Translations under genes and position numbers: made by a program
Assembly (NCBI GenBank): GCA_965214835.1
Contig: CBDCCK010000002.1
Span: forward strand, 2,816,001-2,880,000
DNA length: 64,000 nt
Direction: 5' to 3'
Origin: Nitrosopumilaceae archaeon
GTDB lineage: Archaea > Thermoproteota > Nitrososphaeria > Nitrososphaerales > Nitrosopumilaceae
Shown: one piece after another, positions 54,830 to 64,000 of the stretch
How the letters are laid out: each line of letters begins with the position of its first letter
Position numbering within the stretch: position 1 is the stretch's first letter
Notes under the pieces: model-generated
Database searches by the model: none
Seen by the model: only the letters and a program-made list of their open reading frames with translations
Told to the model about the DNA's origin: nothing

Positions 54830-55446
54830 CATGTCAAAAAGTAGGGTCTATTTTCGACACGCCAGATGGAATGGAAGGAGGACATGTCCCAAATGCGAGT
54901 GCAGGGGGGGTCTATCGCACAGGAGATCGATTCCGGTGTAAAAGATGCTGGTATAGGTTCGACGAGTTTACTGGCACATACTTGGCAAGGATCAGGCTTC
55001 CACCCAACACGGTAATCCTTTTGCTGTATCTGTTTTCGGTAGGAGTTCCGGCATACAGGTTGCGATTTAGCATAAACGTCAGTCTTAGGTCCATAGAACA
55101 TGCGTTCATGGTGTTTCGCGATGCCATATACGAGGCCGCAATCAGAGAGATGAAAATGCTGTCTGGAGACATAGAATTTGATGAGGCGATGTTCGGGGGA
55201 CATCGTAAAGGAAAGCGTGGCTGGGGTGCCGAAGGCAAGACGATCGTATTTGGAATATATGCGAGAAGCGGACAGGTAATGACGTTTCCAGTACCTGACC
55301 GAAAACGCACCACTCTCCGGCCGCTGATCGAAAAGCACACCGAGGCAGGTTCGCTATACTATACAGACGAGCATACTGCATATGCGTTTCTCTCCACCAG
55401 GGGAATGCACAAGACGGTAACCCACAGCAACGACGAGTTTGTACGT
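54830..55446 (+). pseudogene. IS1595-family (ISXO2-like) transposase truncated by ISH3
   Basis: 'IEFDEAMFGG...GKRGWGAEGKTIVFG', 'YTDEHTAY', 'VTHS'. Confidence 0.82.
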
Positions 55447-56978
55447 CAGTAGTTCCTCGATGTACTTTTGCAGGCACGATAATTACGCAATTTGCCGAGA
55501 TTTTTTGACCATCATACTATAGATCAGGCGGTGTGCCAACCATCATCATGTCAGTAACACAAAACGACGTGTTTGCACACCAGTTTGACATAACATCGAG
55601 ACAGTTTAAAACATTGCGACGGCGGTTTCCCAAGCTCGGGCTGGCCGTCTCAAAGAGTCGCAACGCAGTGTATGACCACATCGACGCACTGCGCGTTCTA
55701 TATTTCATGTCTGAGAGGAGGATGTTTGCAGAATCTGCCGTGACGCACCTTCGCAGGCGGGCCTCAAAATGCAGCAGGCAGCAGCATGACGACGGGGCTG
55801 CCTCCAAGGGCGGCGCGTATAGTTGCCGTACGCCTAGTCCGGACTGGATCCTAAAGGCGATCCGGGGCGTCAGCCTGGATGATGCGCAAAAGTGGTGCAG
55901 CTCCATGCTGCAGCATACGGTAAGGTGCGCCCGCAGGTCAGGCATGCTGCACAACACGGACGTCGTGGCAGTGGACGTTACCGACGTGGAATACTATGGC
56001 AAGGGCCTGGAGGATATCGCCAGAAAGTCAAAGCCCAAGAACGGCACGTCGACGTTTCTCTCGCACATTACCATGCACGGAATAGGATCAGATGACGGGT
56101 CTGACCTCGTGCTTTCCTCGCTGCAGCTTCCAAAAGAGGCAAAACTGGCCGATTTCGTGCCTAAAATGATCCGCAAGGCGTCCAGATCAGGGATGAGGAT
56201 CAAGACGTTCCTGTATGACCGCGGGTTCTTTAACGTGGACTGCATGAGGGCTGCAGAAACAAGCACGGGCAGCTACATCATGCCTGCCGTCAAGAACAGG
56301 AGGATAGTGGCGGCAATAGAGGAGCATGACCGCGGAGAACGCGGTGCGGTATCAAAATATACAATGACCAACAAGGACGGCAAGAGCGCCACATTCAGGC
56401 TAGTCATTGTGGAAAAGGACGAGGTAGAAAAGGACGGCACGGCAGCAGCAAAGAAGGACAAGGCAGAAGAGACCATAGCCGACAGGTACCAGGGTCTTTG
56501 CCACCAACATGTCTGCTAAAAGTGCAGAGGCAGTCATTGAGCAGATACCGGAGGAGTACCGCAGTCGGTGGGGAATCGAGACCGGGTTCAGGGTGATCAA
56601 GGGGATAATGGGCAAGACGTGCAGCAATTCCCCGGTCGTCAGGCTGCTGCTGTTCTATATGTCTGTCATACTGTACAACCTGTGGAGGACTGCCGTGTTC
56701 ATAGACGTGGAATCCAAGTGGGACGGATTTGCAGGAGGGAAGGGGTTTACCATGATGCTGTTTGTCGCGTGCATTGTCGATGCGGCCGACTCGTTTGTAA
56801 ACGATCGCGGAAAGTAGCGGCGGTGCCGTGCCCGGTCTGCAAAGGCACACCTAGGAAGTAACCATATGTGAAGACATCGAAAGTGCAGTGATCAGGTGGT
56901 ACCTCCACTGATACGCCAAAGCCCAGGAAGGCGTCAGGGAAGGCAAACAAACTCATTACCCATCGACGTAGTAAGGGC

Positions 56979-57972
56979 ATGATATACGTGGGACTGGACG
57001 TTCACAAGGAATCCGTCCAGATGGCAACGATTGACGGGGACGGAAAGCTCCTGTCCAACAAGAAGATCCCAAGCGACTTTGAATCAGTATCAGAGGCCGT
57101 CTCGAAGATCCCAAAGAAGGCAAAGTACGTCAGAGTCCTCCTCTGTGTGGTACGGGCTGTATCGGTACATGACTGATACCCTCAAGCTGGACGTGGTTCT
57201 GTCAAACCCGTACGCCACCAAGATGATAGCGGCATCCCTGAAGAAGACGGACAGGATAGACGCGCACAAGCTTGCCGAGCTGCTGCGGGGCGGATACATA
57301 GCAAAATGCTATGTCCCCGATGAGAGGATCGTATACCACAGGCAGCTGACCAGGCACCGGAACAAGATAGTGAGGGTCAGGACCAGGATGAAGAACCTGA
57401 TCCACGGCATAACACTGCAGGCCGGATTCAAGAGCAAGGCGCCGTATCCGTTCTCGCCCGCACACGTGGCAGAGCTCAAGGGTCTGCATGACTATAGGAT
57501 AGACTCGTACCTGAGGGAGATAGACATGCAGAACGTGGAGGTTGCAAAGGCAGACATGATGATACGCAAGGCAGTCGATGAGAGCCCCGGTGCGCAGCTT
57601 CTCACGTCGATCCCCGGGTTTGGGCAGTACACTGCACTGGTTGTAATAGCCGAGATAGGCGACATTGAAAGGTTTCCGGACTCTCACAAGCTGTGCGCGA
57701 ATGCGGGGATTGTCCCGTCGGTGCGCAACTCTGCAGACAAGGTATACCACGGGCGCATAACCAAGCGGGGAAGCAACATGATGCAGTGGGTGCTCGTCGA
57801 GGCAGTACACACGCATGTAAGGTGTGCGCCCAACAGCAGCATTACGAGATTCTACAAGCGGCTTGCCAAGAGCAGGGGAACCTCCAAGGCCACCGTGGCA
57901 ACCGCCGCCAAGCTGCTGCGGGTCATCTACTGGATGCTAAAGGAGAATAGGAAGTTCGTAGAATGGCTGTGA
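56979..57972 (+). pseudogene. IS110 DEDD recombinase with a frameshift at ~57132
   Basis: 'YVGLDVHK', 'ESS', 'KTDRIDA', 'SIPGFG', 'AEIGDIERF', 'AGIVPSVRNSA', 'ITKRG'. Confidence 0.88.
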
Positions 57973-58119
57973 CCGTATGTACTGCACTGCGGGGATGGTG
58001 GGGTGACCCTGCATGGTGCGGTCGTTGTAGTGGTGTCCACCCCCTAGCCCCCACCCACCCACCCAATGATCTTATAGGATATGCTTGCACCCGACGGCAT
58101 GAAACGTTTCAAATGGATA

Positions 58120-58290
58120 TCATGGTTAGGAATTTACCGCGTTATCAGTATGAGGATAATGCCTCGGGAAGTAACTGCGGGATCGCCTAACGAATGGATG
58201 AAGATGGTACTGGGGGAAAGCCCCGAATGGATACGTGTCCGCCCATCCTTTGGAAGTGGATCAACCCTAGCGAAAGCCATGCACCATGTC
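58120..58290 (+). ncRNA. Predicted bridge/seek RNA of the IS1111-type element (boundaries approximate)
   Basis: Target loop ATCAGTA-[TGAGG/CCTCG hairpin]-GGAAGTA; donor loop ATGGTA-[GGGG/CCCC hairpin]-ATGGATA; closing stems TTAGG/CCTAA, CCGC/GCGG, GGATG/CATCC. Confidence 0.8.
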
Positions 58291-58334
58291 ACGAAATCCA
58301 GGAAAATGCTTAAAAAGAATTCACATGGATACTG

Positions 58335-59127
58335 ATGTGCCTCTTTTTTCTTCCCGTGTACCGTGTCTTTCTTGCGGTCTTGTCCCCGGGCCTGGCTACG
58401 GGAGTAAGGGTCCCGTCAACTAGGAGGCGTCCTTTTTGGGATCAGTTCCTCTATCCTGTCTGCCGGGGTTTTGCGGATGACGTCTGCTATCTTTTCGGCG
58501 GTAGGCAGTATCTTGCGCAGTATCACGATACAGTACCGGAGGTACCTAGACATCGTGGACTGGTCGACGTCGAACGTTGCGGCCAGGTGGTGCTGCGTCG
58601 CACTGGTCCTCAGGCTCATGAGTTCTGCAAGCAGCGCGTGCCTGATGTGCAACTTGCACCGGTTTCCGGCATCGCTGCGGCTCATGTCGTCCTCCCAGAA
58701 CAGGGGCCTGTCCCTGTCGGCCATGACCGCCTCTGTAAAGCGCTCCAGTATGGTTCTCAAATGACTTCTTTGTGCATCCGGTGACGCTGCAAAGGCGCGC
58801 CGGGCCGCCGATTATGCCGTCTGTAAGCTCGATTGCATGCATCCGCAGTGCCCGGCCGCCGCGCACGATTCTTTCCGTTTTGTTTTCCTCGGACTGCCAC
58901 AGTGAGTCCTCAAACGCAAGCCGGTTCCTCAGATGCTCGTTTTGCTTGGAGAACGGGCATGTTTTGTTCTACCAGACTCTTGTTTTGCTCTTGCAGTGTT
59001 TGGAGAAGGTTGTCATTTGAACTCATACCGTCAAAGAATCATACTGATCTTTATGGTTGTAGGTATACAAATCATGATCTATTGTGTTGTATTTTTAGAT
59101 CAGATTTGCCAATTACGCATAAAGTCT
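58335..59127 (-). pseudogene. Truncated IS5/ISL2-like element; source of MITE D ends
   Basis: 'TQHHLAATFDVDQSTMSRY', 'VDGTLTPVARP...YTGRKKRH'; end ATTACGCATAAAGTCT at 59112-59127. Confidence 0.75.
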
Positions 59128-59183
59128 TACATGAATGCCAGCTCCGTGTAGCGATCATGCGCGGCAGGCGGTGGAAGGAAAAG

Positions 59184-59483
59184 ATGGATGATGTCGGAGG
59201 CCTCAAGATGATGCTGGCATTTGCCGCCGGCATATTCGTAGAGGTCACAGTCATATCATCACTGCTGTCCTCTGATTTGGATTCTGTTATCGGCATTTCA
59301 CTGGCCGTTTTTATACCAATCATCATTCTCCTGATCGCCTTGATTCTAAGCAAGAAGGACAAGAATGAAATCATGGGAAGGCTTGAGACGATGGACAAAA
59401 AGCTGGACAGGCTTGACGAGATGTCAGAGACCCTCAAGGAGATGCGTGACACGCTAAACGAGATCAACCGGAAGCTGAAATAG
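59184..59483 (+). CDS. Small two-TM protein with C-terminal coiled coil
   Basis: Hydrophobic helices followed by 'LETMDKKLDRLDEMSETLKEMRDTL'. Confidence 0.65.
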   Translation: MDDVGGLKMMLAFAAGIFVEVTVISSLLSSDLDSVIGISLAVFIPIIILLIALILSKKDKNEIMGRLETMDKKLDRLDEMSETLKEMRDTLNEINRKLK

Positions 59484-59493
59484 CCGCGAATCC

Positions 59494-59712
59494 GTGCTCA
59501 TTTCGGCTTTATTTGCCTTGCTGCTTTTCATGGTCAACTTGTGGCTGAACAACAACGGCAAGAAGGAGATCATGGAAAAACTTGAGACGATGGACAAAAA
59601 GCTGGACAGGCTTGACGACATCGTGGAGGAGAACAGGGCGCAGACAAAAAAACTGGACAAGATACTGGACATACTGGAGGAAATACGCGACATCCTCAAG
59701 TCACGGGGCTGA
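59494..59712 (+). CDS. Small one-TM coiled-coil paralogue
   Basis: Shares 'EIM.KLETMDKKLDRLD' and 36 identical bp with the upstream ORF. Confidence 0.65.
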   Translation: MLISALFALLLFMVNLWLNNNGKKEIMEKLETMDKKLDRLDDIVEENRAQTKKLDKILDILEEIRDILKSRG

Positions 59713-59911
59713 GGACGGCCGCACGGACGCGGACAGCTGTCAGATGCCCATCATTGCATTCTCGGACAAGACGGCCACCCGGACGCGGACAGGAAATCAG
59801 GCCGCAACGGATGCAGGAAAAGGCATCAGTGGGCAGCGGACATTGTTCCCATACAATGCAATCCAGGGCCGGATTGACAAAGTATAAACACGGACAAAAA
59901 ACCCACCATGC

Positions 59912-60490
59912 GTGGAATCACCCTATGCCGGACTGGATGAGACAGAATGGGCGAACAAGACAGGCGAACTGATCAGCAGGCATCCGCTGAGGCCAGAAGA
60001 AATCACGGGAATAGTAACTAACTGCTGGGACTGCATACTGAACACGGTCATAGGGGACTACAAGATAGGCACGGACATCTTTCCTAGGCCGCAAATCATG
60101 GGGTTTTTTCTGCACGAGCTGATCTGCTTGGAAATATCAAAGCTTGACCCTGAAACATGGGGATGCGAGAAAAAACCAAGCGACAAGGACATTGTCAACC
60201 TAAAAGACGACACGTATTCCATAGAGGTCAAGACATCGTCCCACAAATCAAAAATTTTTGGAAACCGGAGTTACGCGCAAGATACCACAAAACCCAGAAA
60301 GTCGAAATCCGGCTACTATCTGACAATAAACTTTGAAAAATTCAAATCCGGCAGGACAAGGCCGAAGATTACAAAGGTCAGATTTGGCTGGCTGGATCAT
60401 GAGGACTGGGCCGGCCAGAAATCACAGTCGGGACAGCAGGCCCGCCTGCCGCCAAACGTTGAAAAGTCAAAACTGCTGGAGATCCTGTGA
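59912..60490 (+). CDS. ScaI-family type II restriction endonuclease
   Basis: 'SPY.GL...HPL', 'FPRPQIMGFFLHEL', 'KD.....SIEVKTSS', 'GNRSYAQ', 'RFGWLDH.DW' (family recalled from motifs). Confidence 0.75.
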   Translation: MESPYAGLDETEWANKTGELISRHPLRPEEITGIVTNCWDCILNTVIGDYKIGTDIFPRPQIMGFFLHELICLEISKLDPETWGCEKKPSDKDIVNLKDDTYSIEVKTSSHKSKIFGNRSYAQDTTKPRKSKSGYYLTINFEKFKSGRTRPKITKVRFGWLDHEDWAGQKSQSGQQARLPPNVEKSKLLEIL

Positions 60491-61315
60491 CTGCCGCCGT
60501 ATCCTGTCTATTGCAATGTCCAAATAATCCTCGTTTGTGTCACACCCCACGACCTGTCGGTTGTTCATGATTCCTGCTATGGCAACGCTGCCTGATCCCA
60601 TGAATGGATCAAATATCAGATCATGCTCGTTGCTTGATGATTTCACTATCCTGTCCAGTATTGCCAGCGGAAACTGGGCGGGGTGGTCCACTCTTTCCCT
60701 GGATGCCCTGTTCCTTCCAGACGTCACTTTTGGTATCTCCCAGACGTTGGTGGGGTTTTTCCCCAAAGGATTGCATTTTAATCTTCCATTCTTCTTCTGG
60801 TTGGGGTACTTTACGTCGGGATCCCTTATGGAATCCAGGTTGAACGTGTACCGGTCCCGGTTTTTTACATACCACAGGTACTTTTCATTTCTCGGGGAAA
60901 AGTATCTCTTTGTCGCCACTCCGGCCTTGTAGTACCACACGATTTCCTGCATGAAATAGAAATCCGTCTTGTCCCACAGCAGATAGTTTATGGGAACGGC
61001 CTTGCCTATGTCCTGCAGTTCAAAGTACCCCAGGTTGAGCCAAAAGGCGCCATTGCGATCTGTCATTTCAAAAACCTGATTCAGCCATTTCCTGCACCAC
61101 TTTAGGTAGTCCTTTGGGTCCTGCACCCTTTCATACTCCTTGCCTATGTTGTATGGCGGCGAGGTTATTGTCAGGTTCATCAGGGGTGATTTTACTTTAT
61201 CCATGAATTCCACGCAGTCAATATTGTACAGCAGTACGCGGTCATCAGAGTAATAGGGGTCGCCAATCTCCTGCCTTATTGAATCCAGTTTTGACATCTG
61301 TTTCAGGTTGCTCAT
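60467..61315 (-). CDS. Beta-class N4-cytosine/N6-adenine DNA methyltransferase
   Basis: 'TSPPY', 'HPAQFP', 'DPFMGSGS'; convergent with and overlapping the REase. Confidence 0.92.
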   Translation of the reverse strand: MSNLKQMSKLDSIRQEIGDPYYSDDRVLLYNIDCVEFMDKVKSPLMNLTITSPPYNIGKEYERVQDPKDYLKWCRKWLNQVFEMTDRNGAFWLNLGYFELQDIGKAVPINYLLWDKTDFYFMQEIVWYYKAGVATKRYFSPRNEKYLWYVKNRDRYTFNLDSIRDPDVKYPNQKKNGRLKCNPLGKNPTNVWEIPKVTSGRNRASRERVDHPAQFPLAILDRIVKSSSNEHDLIFDPFMGSGSVAIAGIMNNRQVVGCDTNEDYLDIAIDRIRRQSQDLQQF

Positions 61316-61562
61316 CGCTCATCGCTCCGTTTCTTCACTGTGATTTTTCACCACGGGCTTTCGCGCGTCTTTCATGAAACTGTTACCATGCGACTCTACT
61401 TATATTTTCAGCTAGGTGCCGGAGATGGAAATGTGATCCGGGTGGCGGCAGACTCGCCGGATCACATGATCAACTTTGACGGGGAGAGGTTTCTCGGGCC
61501 GTAACATGCGGCATACGGACTGCGGCGTGATGCCGGTCATCCCCGGTCTCCGGCCGGCAAGT

Positions 61563-62979
61563 CAGTAGTTCCTCGATGTACTTTTGCAGGCACGATAATT
61601 ACGCAATTTGCCGAGATTTTTTGACCATCATACTATAGATCAGGCGGTGTGCCAACCATCATCATGATACCAACACAAAACGACGTGTTTGCACACCAGT
61701 TTGACATAACATCGAGACAGTTTAAAACATTGCGACGGCGGTTTCCCAAGCTCGGGCTGGCCGTCTCAAAGAGTCGCAACGCAGTGTATGACCACATCGA
61801 CGCACTGCGCGTTCTATATTTCATGTCTGAGAGGAGGATGTTTGCAGAATCTGCCGTGACGCACCTTCGCAGGCGGGCCTCAAAATGCAGCAGGCAGCAG
61901 CATGACGACGGGGCTGCCTCCAAGGGCGGCGCGTATAGTTGCCGTACGCCTAGTCCGGACTGGATCCTAAAGGCGATCCGGGGCGTCAGCCTGGATGATG
62001 CGCAAAAGTGGTGCAGCTCCATGCTGCAGCATACGGTAAGGTGCGCCCGCAGGTCAGGCATGCTGCACAACACGGACGTCGTGGCAGTGGACGTTACCGA
62101 CGTGGAATACTATGGCAAGGGCCTGGAGGATATCGCCAGAAAGTCAAAGCCCAAGAACGGCACGTCGACGTTTCTCTCGCACATTACCATGCACGGAATA
62201 GGATCAGATGACGGGTCTGACCTCGTGCTTTCCTCGCTGCAGCTTCCAAAAGAGGCAAAACTGGCCGATTTCGTGCCTAAAATGATCCGCAAGGCGTCCA
62301 GATCAGGGATGAGGATCAAGACGTTCCTGTATGACCGCGGGTTCTTTAACGTGGACTGCATGAGGGCTGCAGAAACAAGCACGGGCAGCTACATCATGCC
62401 TGCCGTCAAGAACAGGAGGATAGTGGCGGCAATAGAGGAGCATGACCGCGGAGAACGCGGTGCGGTATCAAAATATACAATGACCAACAAGGACGGCAAG
62501 AGCGCCACATTCAGGCTAGTCATTGTGGAAAAGGACGAGGTAGAAAAGGACGGCACGGCAGCAGCAAAGAAGGACAAGGCAGAAGAGACCATAGCCGACA
62601 GGTACCAGGGTCTTTGCCACCAACATGTCTGCTAAAAGTGCAGAGGCAGTCATTGAGCAGATACCGGAGGAGTACCGCAGTCGGTGGGGAATCGAGACCG
62701 GGTTCAGGGTGATCAAGGGAATAATGGGCAAGACGTGCAGCAATTCCCCGGTCGTCAGGCTGCTGCTGTTCTATATGTCTGTCATACTGTACAACCTGTG
62801 GAGGACTGCCGTGTTCATAGACGTGGAGTCCAAGTGGGACGGATTTGCAGGAGGGAAGGGGTTTACCATGATGCTGTTTGTCGCGTGCATTGTCGATGCG
62901 GCCGACTCGTTTGTAAACGATCGCGGAAAGTAGCGGAGGTGCCGTGTCGGGTCTGCAAAAGTACATCTAGGAAGTACTG
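61563..62979 (+). mobile_element. ISH3-family element copy 2 with both TIRs intact and the same internal frameshift as copy 1
   Basis: CAGTAGTTCCTCGATGTACTTTTGCAG / CTGCAAAAGTACATCTAGGAAGTACTG; ORFs 61649-62635 and 62625-62933. Confidence 0.9.
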
Positions 62980-62985
62980 ATGTGC

Positions 62986-63068
62986 AGTTTGTGCCAAAGT
63001 CCAGTCTCCAGACCGATCAAATAGACTCGTGCCTGAAATCAGGAGTTGCTTCGAGTCCGAGCTGCTGC
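62986..63068. mobile_element. Partial MITE B, reverse orientation
   Basis: CTCGTGCCTGAAATCAGGAG...CCGAGCTGCTGC; similar to 39330-39415. Confidence 0.65.
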
Positions 63069-63288
63069 CTTTCTCTGCCTTTATATCGAGACGATTTTTC
63101 CTCCAGTCTTTTCTTCGTATTTTTTGATTGGTGCAGCCTAAAACAATCCAAGTACGCCTGATCTTAGGCGGAACCAATTTTCGTACAATACACTGTATCG
63201 CTTCTATGGAGGGCGCCATGATGAAGGCTCCCGTGAAATGGCTGCAACGCAGCTAAATTTAAGGGTAGATGGCTAGCTTTAGTAGTAG

Positions 63289-63810
63289 TTGGAATCATTT
63301 GACTTGGTCATTCCATGGATAGGCGAGGTTTTAGGGGAGCACCTATACGAGGGGATCTTCCTGGCGGCCCTGCTTGAGACGGTCATTCCCCCGGTTCCCA
63401 CACTGGCAGTCTTTCCAACCGCCGGACTGATAGCGTCTCAGAACGGACTGTCAGTCTTCGAGGTCATCCCCATGATATTCCTAGGCGCGCTGGGTGCGAC
63501 CATCGGAACCACGGGGATCTACCTGATTGCGCTAAAGCTTGGCAGGAGCGTACTGCTGCGTTACCTGCGCCTTTTGAAAATTTCCGAGAAGAGGCTGGAA
63601 CGTGCAGAAGGATGGTTTGAAAGGCACGGGGACAAGGCAGTATTCATCGGACGGGTGGTGCCGGTAATGAGGGAGATGGTTTCGGTTCCCGCTGGACTCC
63701 TGGGCATGAAGACCCCAAAGTTTGTCCTGTATACATTCGGGGGATCAACGGTCTGGTCGGCAGGAACCATCCTGGCAGGGTACTATTTTGGCGCAGCATG
63801 GAATGCGTAG
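63289..63810 (+). CDS. dedA: DedA/SNARE-associated membrane protein
   Basis: 'LETVIPPVP', 'AEGWFERHG..AVFIGRVVP..R..VSVPAG...M'. Confidence 0.9.
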   Translation: MESFDLVIPWIGEVLGEHLYEGIFLAALLETVIPPVPTLAVFPTAGLIASQNGLSVFEVIPMIFLGALGATIGTTGIYLIALKLGRSVLLRYLRLLKISEKRLERAEGWFERHGDKAVFIGRVVPVMREMVSVPAGLLGMKTPKFVLYTFGGSTVWSAGTILAGYYFGAAWNA

Positions 63811-64000
63811 CAGTGCTTGTGGATACGCGTATGGGGCAGGCTCAAACCAAAGACATGTGCGGACGGTCAGATCAGGGGCTTTGTAAAGGACAGCGAGTTT
63901 TGCTCGAATCCAAGACGGAGGTAAAACCTGTGGGATCCTTTCCGCTGGTTTCCAGACTCCAGTCTGATCCTGTGGCACCCGTGCTCGACACCCAGAGAAA

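Follow-up and report, generated by a model that had tools for sequence, protein, structure and literature searches.

A predicted guide RNA links an archaeal IS1111-type element to the tips of ISH3-like insertion sequences and to its own ends

Here we describe an IS1111-type insertion sequence (IS) of the IS110 family that interrupts the terminal repeat of another IS, an ISH3-like one, in a Nitrosopumilaceae archaeon. The element occupies positions 56861-58331 on the forward strand of the window, by which we mean the whole stretch of 64,000 nucleotides (nt) that was analysed (assembly GCA_965214835.1, contig CBDCCK010000002.1, positions 2,816,001 to 2,880,000), and is 1471 base pairs (bp) long, counting one copy of its TA core. 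Its 3' non-coding end is predicted to encode a guide RNA that names both the target, in the tips of ISH3-like ISs, and the ends of the element itself. We estimate the probability that the element is an RNA-guided IS of this kind at about 0.88. A preliminary description of the window had already proposed the core of this reading, namely that an element of the IS1111 type, with a TA core and a bridge/seek RNA in its 3' end, occupies the terminal repeat of an IS, and the proposal survived tests of site choice and of covariation in guides and stems.

Both insertion junctions were read directly from the window. On the left side, the host sequence ..CCTAGGAAG-TA (TA at 56859-56860) is followed by the left end of the element, ACCATATGTGAA (from 56861). 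On the right side, the element ends with TTCACATGGA-TA (TA at 58330-58331) and the host sequence resumes with CTGATGTGC (from 58332). Removal of the element yields GGAAGTACTGAT, the same letters as positions 62970-62981 at the right end of an intact ISH3-like copy. TA is present at both junctions, this shared core dinucleotide being the sole target duplication, and the insertion is precise; it lies within the right terminal repeat of the ISH3-like IS, 3 bp from the tip. The junctions, the TA core and the restored host end were all borne out as first described, but the span originally given, 56851-58340, contains the element together with flanking context. A subterminal inverted repeat of 7 bp lies a few bases in from each tip (ATGTGAA at 56866-56872, with its partner TTCACAT at 58320-58326), and the end motifs ACCATATGTG and CACAT[GA]GATA are kept in relatives. 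The 5' non-coding end comprises 119 nt (56861-56978) compared to 360 nt for the 3' non-coding end (57973-58331). According to the available text of two 2024 papers (PMC11187229, PMC11208160), a longer downstream non-coding end and subterminal inverted repeats of 7-17 bp set IS1111-type elements apart from those of the IS110 type. The assignment of the window element to the IS1111 type is based on this architecture, i.e. the long 3' non-coding end, the 7-bp subterminal repeats and the order of the putative guides.

The predicted bridge/seek RNA extends from 58122 to 58259 on the forward strand. Stems P1 and P2 lead into a target loop that contains hairpin P3, and stem P4 leads into a donor loop that contains hairpin P5. 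In the target loop, the 5' guide AUCAGUA (58144-58150) is complementary to the top strand TA-CTGAT, that is, to the core and the right flank. The 3' target guide GGAAGUA(AC) (58167-58175, with GGAAGTA at 58167-58173) is the same as the top strand of the left flank, the core and the first 2 nt of the element. In the donor loop, the AUGGU of the 5' guide AUGGUA (58204-58209) is complementary to the left end ACCAT, and the 3' guide AUGGAUA (58227-58233) is the same as the right end ATGGA-TA. All four guides thus occur at the positions proposed earlier. The donor loop had been described as matching both ends with an imperfect first guide; the matches to the right end and to ACCAT hold and, in agreement with that description, the core is not matched by the first guide. 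As a control for chance matches, the 353-nt non-coding end was subjected to 200,000 mononucleotide shuffles: both target 7-mers occurred together in 110 of these, and in the right order within 40 nt in 11.

The structure of the putative RNA was derived from an alignment of 19 homologous 3' ends from the window genome and relatives, which were aligned by MAFFT, folded as a consensus by RNAalifold and converted into a covariance model (R1). The outer stem P1 is TTAGG/CCTAA in the window copy, P2 (CCGCG/..GCGG) closes the internal loop holding P3, and P4 (GGAUG/UGUCC) closes a second internal loop holding P5. The CCGC/GCGG and TTAGG/CCTAA stems noticed in the preliminary description are therefore present, and they covary in relatives. 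The window RNA scored 131.5 bits with R1. The window genome (G000; 3.22 Mb, 52.6% G+C) had 11 matches, every one an already known copy, and the fetched loci contained 39 matches plus a further 27. Across the class, the ammonia-oxidising archaea, matches occurred in 24 of 151 sampled genomes and in 5 of 12 families, and were most numerous in genomes G019 and G191 with 20 and 21, respectively. In the 39-sequence alignment, 95.6% of cells were paired and 16 of 24 pairs displayed compensatory changes, with the reservation that alignments A2 and A3 were fitted to R1, which favours structure; when the pairing partner was slid by 1-3 columns, pairing fell to 34-46%. Compensation was already apparent in the unfitted MAFFT alignment, where CCGC/GCGG is replaced by CUGC/GCAG and UUAGG/CCUAA by UUAGAAC/GUUCUAA. 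In six related loci (L031-L036) the RNA begins about 10 nt past the stop codon of the recombinase gene, and thus the RNA may be cut out of the recombinase transcript.

Covariation between guides and targets, which the preliminary description had proposed as a check along with the sites of other copies, was found when the covariance model was applied to relatives. Element ends were located by the conserved end motifs using a regular expression, and the flanks were then read; the end call was wrong for at least one locus (L081), which was kept in the count. In 24 non-identical elements with both junctions, the 3' guide matched the left flank (five bases before TA) at 85 of 120 positions. Shuffling the pairing among elements gave a mean of 33.5 (standard deviation 6.3), and none of 20,000 permutations reached 85. 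For the 5' guide and the right flank, compared as the best ungapped 7-mer over 42 non-identical pairs, 218 of 294 positions matched (permuted mean 158.6, standard deviation 5.3; 0 of 20,000 as high); exact duplicates and two loci with a truncated 5' guide (L006 and L008) were omitted from this count. With one element per guide, 176 of 231 positions matched compared to 125.6 after permutation, and in all these comparisons the relatives are kin that share targets, so that the permutation figures overstate independence.

Several relatives carry guides for wholly different targets: TCAC-TA and GAATTAC in L029, AGAA-TA and CATC.TC in L030, TGCA-TA and AACTCTA in L034, TCCCAAAAT in L089 and TTCCCAAAT in L093. 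The 5' guides of L031 and L032 are one base apart (AGAGUUU and AGACUUU), and their flanks show the matching difference. In L099 and L101, distant members of this RNA family that come from another family of the class, TG takes the place of TA both in the guide and in the right junction, indicating that the core dinucleotide varies between lineages. Judged by these comparisons, the predicted guides change with the targets and with the element ends across relatives. This pattern bears directly on the alternative that the protein reads the target and that the non-coding end came to match it only as a by-product, for instance through copying of DNA from the junction. The 3' target guide and two further bases do equal the left junction (GGAAGTAAC), and the guide RNA is a prediction from DNA sequence. 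However, the matches lie in loops of a scaffold with covarying stems, they change with the target across at least 12 distinct target classes, one guide matches the opposite strand, and the same design has been shown experimentally for bacterial IS1111 and IS110 elements. We consider target reading by the protein to be very improbable.

The donor guides were compared to the element ends in the same way. In all the variants observed (ATGGATA, ATAGATA, ATGGGTA and ATAGATG), the 3' donor guide agrees with the right end. The 5' donor guide tracks the left end in L030 (ACCGT) and L053 (ATCAT) besides ACCAT, and is one base off in L029 and L047. An alternative donor guide, ATGGATATCATGGTTA at 58113-58128, was rejected because it is unchanged in diverged relatives with the right end ATAGATA, whereas the loop at 58227-58233 changes. 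A "handshake" base after the 3' donor guide was also looked for; among 16 elements inspected by eye, it agreed with the first base of the flank in 7, which is unconvincing.

A number of observations weigh against guidance by the RNA as described. The 5' donor guide of the window copy does not cover the core. In 5 of the 24 elements (L005, L010, L044, L062 and L053) the 3' guide fits the left flank poorly, at two or fewer of five bases, and in 14 of the 42 pairs the 5' guide matches at four or fewer of seven. For the relatives d1547 and dC1, the fit to the left flank is poor, and no rearrangement was found that explains the misfit. The 3' target guides of L045 and L064, two copies in genome G044, read CAU-UA and CAA-UA, and each suits the left flank of the other copy better than that of the copy which carries it. 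A derivative of about 470 bp in genome G080 (L041, G080:C57:1786-2256) has the guide GGAAG, yet resides at CGAAC-TA-CTGGA. A search for RNA runs of this sequence returned none. An Rfam scan of 55000-64000 at E values up to 1 gave no match; the predicted RNA is missing from Rfam or too distant from any Rfam family. Single-sequence folds of 58085-58332 and 58120-58255 were no more stable than shuffles (z of +0.29 and -1.08), and hence the RNA structure rests on covariation. Finally, neither full copy in the window genome has a continuous recombinase frame, as described below.

To describe site choice, we refer to copies like the window element as win-type, and to diverged relatives with about 67% nucleotide identity and the same left end as d-type. 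In addition to the window copy, the window genome contains a second full win-type copy (C2:2027328-2028799), which is 97% identical to it, and a win-type copy with an internal deletion (c716, C2:716083-716557; 473 bp) that has kept both ends and the whole RNA gene. All three, the only win-type copies with both junctions, lie between GGAA[G/C]-TA and CTG at ends of ISH3-like ISs. The window copy resides in the right end of an abundant ISH3-like IS and the second full copy in that of a diverged one. Copy c716 occupies the end of a second ISH3-like type, empty paralogues of which occur at C2:2636022 and C2:1095361. Here the guide reads GGAACUA and the site GGAACTA, and both full copies carry GGAAGUA in GGAAGTA, a matched G-to-C change. 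Five further win-type fragments (C2:593214, 1212500, 1816941, 3054178 and 3148110) consist of the right end only and have kept all or part of the RNA gene; CTG follows directly after four of them. Elsewhere in the genus, one genome contains a related intact element that carries a GGAAC guide and sits between ..ATCGGAAC-TA and CTG at both of the two sites read. Together with the win-type copies, this element supports a choice of ISH3-like tips as insertion sites, one part of the hyperparasite reading in the preliminary description.

Whether that site choice serves to disable the host IS is another matter. A guide tuned to an abundant, non-essential and horizontally travelling sequence would make insertions harmless and allow the element to hitch-hike with the IS, in which case targeting of IS ends would be a safe-harbour strategy with the disabling of the host as a side effect. 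We lean slightly towards this explanation. The 10-mer GGAA[GC]TACTG occurs 76 times in the window genome, compared to about 12 expected by uniform chance; one IS type accounts for 57 of these occurrences with its two ends, ends of the second type account for 6, and the other 13 belong to neither. Only three further sites are occupied by the element, i.e. 3 of about 79, although an element that has become defective would also be expected to occupy few sites. Relatives use other repeats, such as a short palindromic repeat element in L031-L036 and a 19-copy repeat in the d-type relative d1547, and bacterial IS1111/IS110 members are described, in the parts of the literature available to us, as targeting repetitive extragenic palindromic (REP) elements, attC sites and Tn21 repeats. 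Under either reading, an element sitting 3 bp from the tip would plausibly put that end out of action, and the present evidence does not separate a safe harbour from an anti-IS function.

Some further observations were made on these copies and their sites. The 19-copy repeat (C2:1526898 and 18 other places) starts with AGGATAGCCCCTGCCTAG, mostly after GTAAC or GTAAT; d1547 is inserted at its start and precisely at TA, as is proven by the empty paralogue at C2:1526898. A miniature inverted-repeat transposable element (MITE) of about 130 bp lies to the left of the second full copy (approximately 2028800-2028940). It has the ends GGGGTTGTCGCCTAATTC.. and dozens of BLAST matches in the genome. Its insertion point here falls within that same ISH3-like terminal repeat, and CTAGGAAG is repeated on its two sides. 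One right-end fragment begins inside the 5' target guide, and another reads ATCAGTA-TA-GGAACTA without the hairpin between the guides; such structures might have arisen by recombination within the very DNA that encodes the guides. The guide swap between L045 and L064 looks like an exchange of right parts between the two copies.

The recombinase gene is present as two overlapping frames, 56979-57176 and 57031-57972. The N-terminal part (56979-57132, frame 1) starts with the ATG at 56979, covers residues 4-56 of Pfam PF01548 and ends at a 2-nt deletion. The remainder (57133-57972, frame 2) encodes the rest of the DEDD domain and Transposase_20, and its stop codon ends at 57972. PF01548 (DEDD_Tnp_IS110) was matched in both frames (6e-07 and 8.7e-13) and PF02371 (Transposase_20) at 3.1e-23. 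With 194.7 bits against a cut-off of 140 for the NCBIfam model NF033542, "IS110 family RNA-guided transposase", the predicted recombinase is assigned to the IS110 family. The C-terminal IS1111 motif GL-P----S(t)G reads GIVPSVRNSA in the window protein, so that the spacing fits and SA stands in place of SG or TG; an occasional TA at the end of this motif is noted in the available text of the seekRNA paper (PMC11187229). The nearest relative with a solved structure is the IS621 recombinase, which is matched weakly (E 6e-11 over the C-terminal part).

The frameshift reported in the preliminary description is real. The deletion lies between 57132 and 57133, directly before the codon for the catalytic glutamate of the DEDD motif, where the window has GTC A-- GAG compared to GT[ACG] [AGC]T[GA] GA[AG] in 10 of 10 relatives. 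The second full copy has the identical deletion. As read, the window copy would be unable to make a full-length recombinase, and both full copies are predicted to be non-autonomous. Repair of the frame had been thought necessary to obtain a compact archaeal recombinase. Intact relatives, however, exist in the same genome and genus, and repair is therefore unnecessary for studying the system: two of three d-type relatives in the window genome have intact frames, and intact frames were found in d1547, d1472 and L068. The remainder of the window recombinase is 58% identical to the intact protein of d1547, which has 340 amino acids (aa). The recombinase might conceivably still be expressed by a +1 shift, which would be compatible with the shared deletion and with divergence that does not look neutral: the 23 coding differences between the two full copies comprise 11 synonymous and 12 non-synonymous changes, fewer non-synonymous ones than neutral decay would give. 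No slippery motif was seen by eye at the deletion, and the AGA there accounts for 15% of arginine codons and is thus not a rare codon.

The shared deletion also raises the question of whether the window copy is an immobile relic of an element that died when the 2 nt were lost, its copies being fossils. This explanation has a somewhat lower than even chance in our estimation. Besides the deletion in both full copies, the five right-end fragments and the internal-deletion copy in the genome would fit it. Among the DNA contigs compared, from four runs of one study, neither a circle junction nor an empty site was present; the sole joint, 57009 to 58009, corresponds to the internal-deletion form. 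The right end of the element was covered several times as deeply as the gene, in keeping with the additional right-end copies. On the other hand, the deletion-bearing copies reside at different sites, which implies at least one later move unless gene conversion spread the deletion. The genome encodes intact relatives with the same left end, two genomes of the genus carry, each at a site of its own, an internal-deletion form of about 470 bp with the same breakpoints, implying movement in trans, and the ratio of synonymous to non-synonymous differences is unlike neutral decay.

If the window copy moved recently, a related recombinase would have done the work in trans. We infer, as the most economical reading, a recombinase supplied in trans, with the element's own RNA providing specificity, because the two deletion-bearing full copies sit at different sites, because the 58% identical intact recombinase comes from elements with the same left end and is encoded in the same genome, and because the seekRNA paper (PMC11187229), in its available text, reports that a seekRNA is not restricted to closely related transposases. 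This supply in trans could be part of a layered parasitism in ammonia-oxidising archaea, in which guides are retuned to the tips of other ISs and the recombinase is shed, leaving mini-elements of about 470-580 bp, each with two ends and its own guide-RNA gene, to be moved in trans. A d-type deletion derivative in the window genome (d192, C2:191530-192098; 578 bp) has this form and retains both ends and the whole RNA gene. We regard layered parasitism as a tentative and rather unlikely proposal; if true, solo right-end copies would act as independent guide-RNA genes with which a resident recombinase could be redirected.

A mechanism of RNA-guided insertion is proposed by homology with ISEc11 and IS621. 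The element would excise as a circle with the junction ..ATGGA-TA-ACCAT.., and the RNA from the 3' non-coding end would be transcribed and bind the DEDD recombinase. The first RNA loop would pair with both target strands around TA: AUCAGUA would bind the top strand TA-CTGAT, and the partner of GGAAGUA would be the bottom strand of GGAAG-TA. Pairing of the second loop with both element ends would allow the RNA to bridge circle junction and target, and the DEDD recombinase would exchange strands at TA. The programmed target would be the outermost 10-12 bp of ISH3-like ISs, hence the landing site 3 bp inside the terminal repeat. The interrupted host IS has plausibly lost its mobility, since 1.47 kb now separate its last 3 bp from the remainder of the repeat.

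The interrupted host IS (copy 1) extends on the forward strand from its left end CAGTAGTTCC at 55447 to the interrupting TA at 56860, and its severed tip, CTG, the last 3 bp of the right terminal repeat, is found at 58332-58334. Including the tip, copy 1 measures 1417 bp, as does the intact copy 2 (61563-62979, forward strand), whose right end GGAAGTACTG (62970-62979) represents the unoccupied target. The transposase of copy 1 is split into frames at 55533-56519 and 56509-56817, and its best NCBIfam match is ISH3, at 71.6 and 59.6 bits for the two parts of the split frame against a cut-off of 225; an intact protein of 373 aa from the second IS type scored 130.3 bits, also under the cut-off. 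The host had previously been named ISH3; the best model match agrees with this name but falls below the curated cut-off, and we therefore refer to it as ISH3-like. Both transposases in the window (55533-56817 and 61649-62933) are split into the same overlapping frames of 328 and 102 aa. About 28-29 near-identical ISH3-like copies are nevertheless present in the genome. Either the frameshift is common to the whole family and is read through, or the IS is dead but was amplified recently. By eye comparison of flank pairs, a 4-bp duplication of the form ANNT flanks 9 of 13 complete ISH3-like copies. The flanks of the window copies do not match, with ACGT/ATGT for copy 1 (55442-55446, 58335-58339) and AAGT/ATGT for copy 2 (61558-61562, 62980-62984), hinting at past exchange between ISH3-like copies. 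Between the two copies lie a 114-aa frame with an HTH_Tnp_4 domain (58416-58760, reverse strand) and a 282-aa frame with an SPPY motif (60467-61315, reverse strand), a candidate DNA methyltransferase. The latter adjoins a 192-aa frame on the opposite, forward strand (59912-60490), and the two may constitute a restriction-modification pair bracketed by two IS copies.

RNA guidance of IS110/IS1111 elements, the occurrence of IS1111 members in terminal repeats of transposons, and 662 archaeal IS110 recombinases are already in print. In the literature searched, no paper paired "bridge RNA" with "Nitrosopumilus"; the supplementary tables of the 2024 papers, which lay outside the search, may list such archaeal elements. 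The papers joining IS110, Thaumarchaeota and "insertion sequence" included none on RNA-guided IS elements, judged by titles and the beginnings of abstracts, and ISHvo10, the closest named IS found (see below), was mentioned solely in the seekRNA paper within the literature searched. The picture of how IS110/IS1111 elements work is left unchanged by our results; the mechanism was first described in bacteria in 2024, and its presence here will not surprise a specialist. What the analysis adds is an extension of apparent RNA-guided IS1111-type recombination, with natural covariation of guides with targets and donors, to a clade of ammonia-oxidising archaea, and a probable archaeal counterpart of IS4321/IS5075 in which one IS homes to the tip of another. 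It further provides a resource of naturally reprogrammed guides, mini-derivatives and compact intact recombinases, whose length is 340 aa for P0001 and about 340-370 aa in relatives, all of which could possibly be used in mechanistic or tool-building work at moderate temperature.

Among known systems, the bacterial elements IS4321 and IS5075 resemble the window element in that an IS1111-type element has a fixed insertion point within a terminal repeat that belongs to a different transposable element. Those elements are bacterial and reside in transposons of the Tn3 family, whereas the element described here is archaeal, its hosts comprise at least two ISH3-like IS types, and guide variants exist for GGAAG and GGAAC ends. 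IS621 carries its RNA in the left end and has the core CT. In contrast, the RNA of the window element lies in the 3' end, the core is TA, and the similarity between the proteins is weak. The likeness to the IS621 bridge RNA, as described in the available text of Durrant et al. 2024 (PMC11208160), consists of two internal loops for target and donor, each reading both strands; for 93% of IS1111 members, the same text predicts that the right end contains the RNA. With the IS1111 elements ISEc11, ISPa11, ISKpn4 and ISPst6, for which seekRNAs are described in the portions of Siddiquee et al. 2024 (PMC11187229) at hand, the window element shares the DEDD recombinase, the long downstream non-coding region and the subterminal inverted repeats. 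The seekRNA of the ISEc11 group is presented there with the segment complementary to the top strand located 5' of that complementary to the bottom strand, the two overlapping at the crossover, as in the window RNA. The window element differs from this group in that it is archaeal, its protein is only distantly related, its core is TA and its target is an IS terminus. ISPpu9 of Pseudomonas putida, with the RNA Ssr9, is likewise an IS110 family member in repeats; its RNA gene follows the transposase gene, and further copies of this RNA gene stand alone elsewhere in the genome; according to the available part of the report (PMC12288879), it differs in being bacterial and in targeting REP elements. 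ISHvo10 of Haloferax volcanii is archaeal and has 34% identity over 97% of the window protein (E 9e-50). The seekRNA paper (PMC11187229), in its available text, calls ISHvo10 a more diverged IS and gives it long non-coding regions on both sides, whereas that of the window element is long downstream only.

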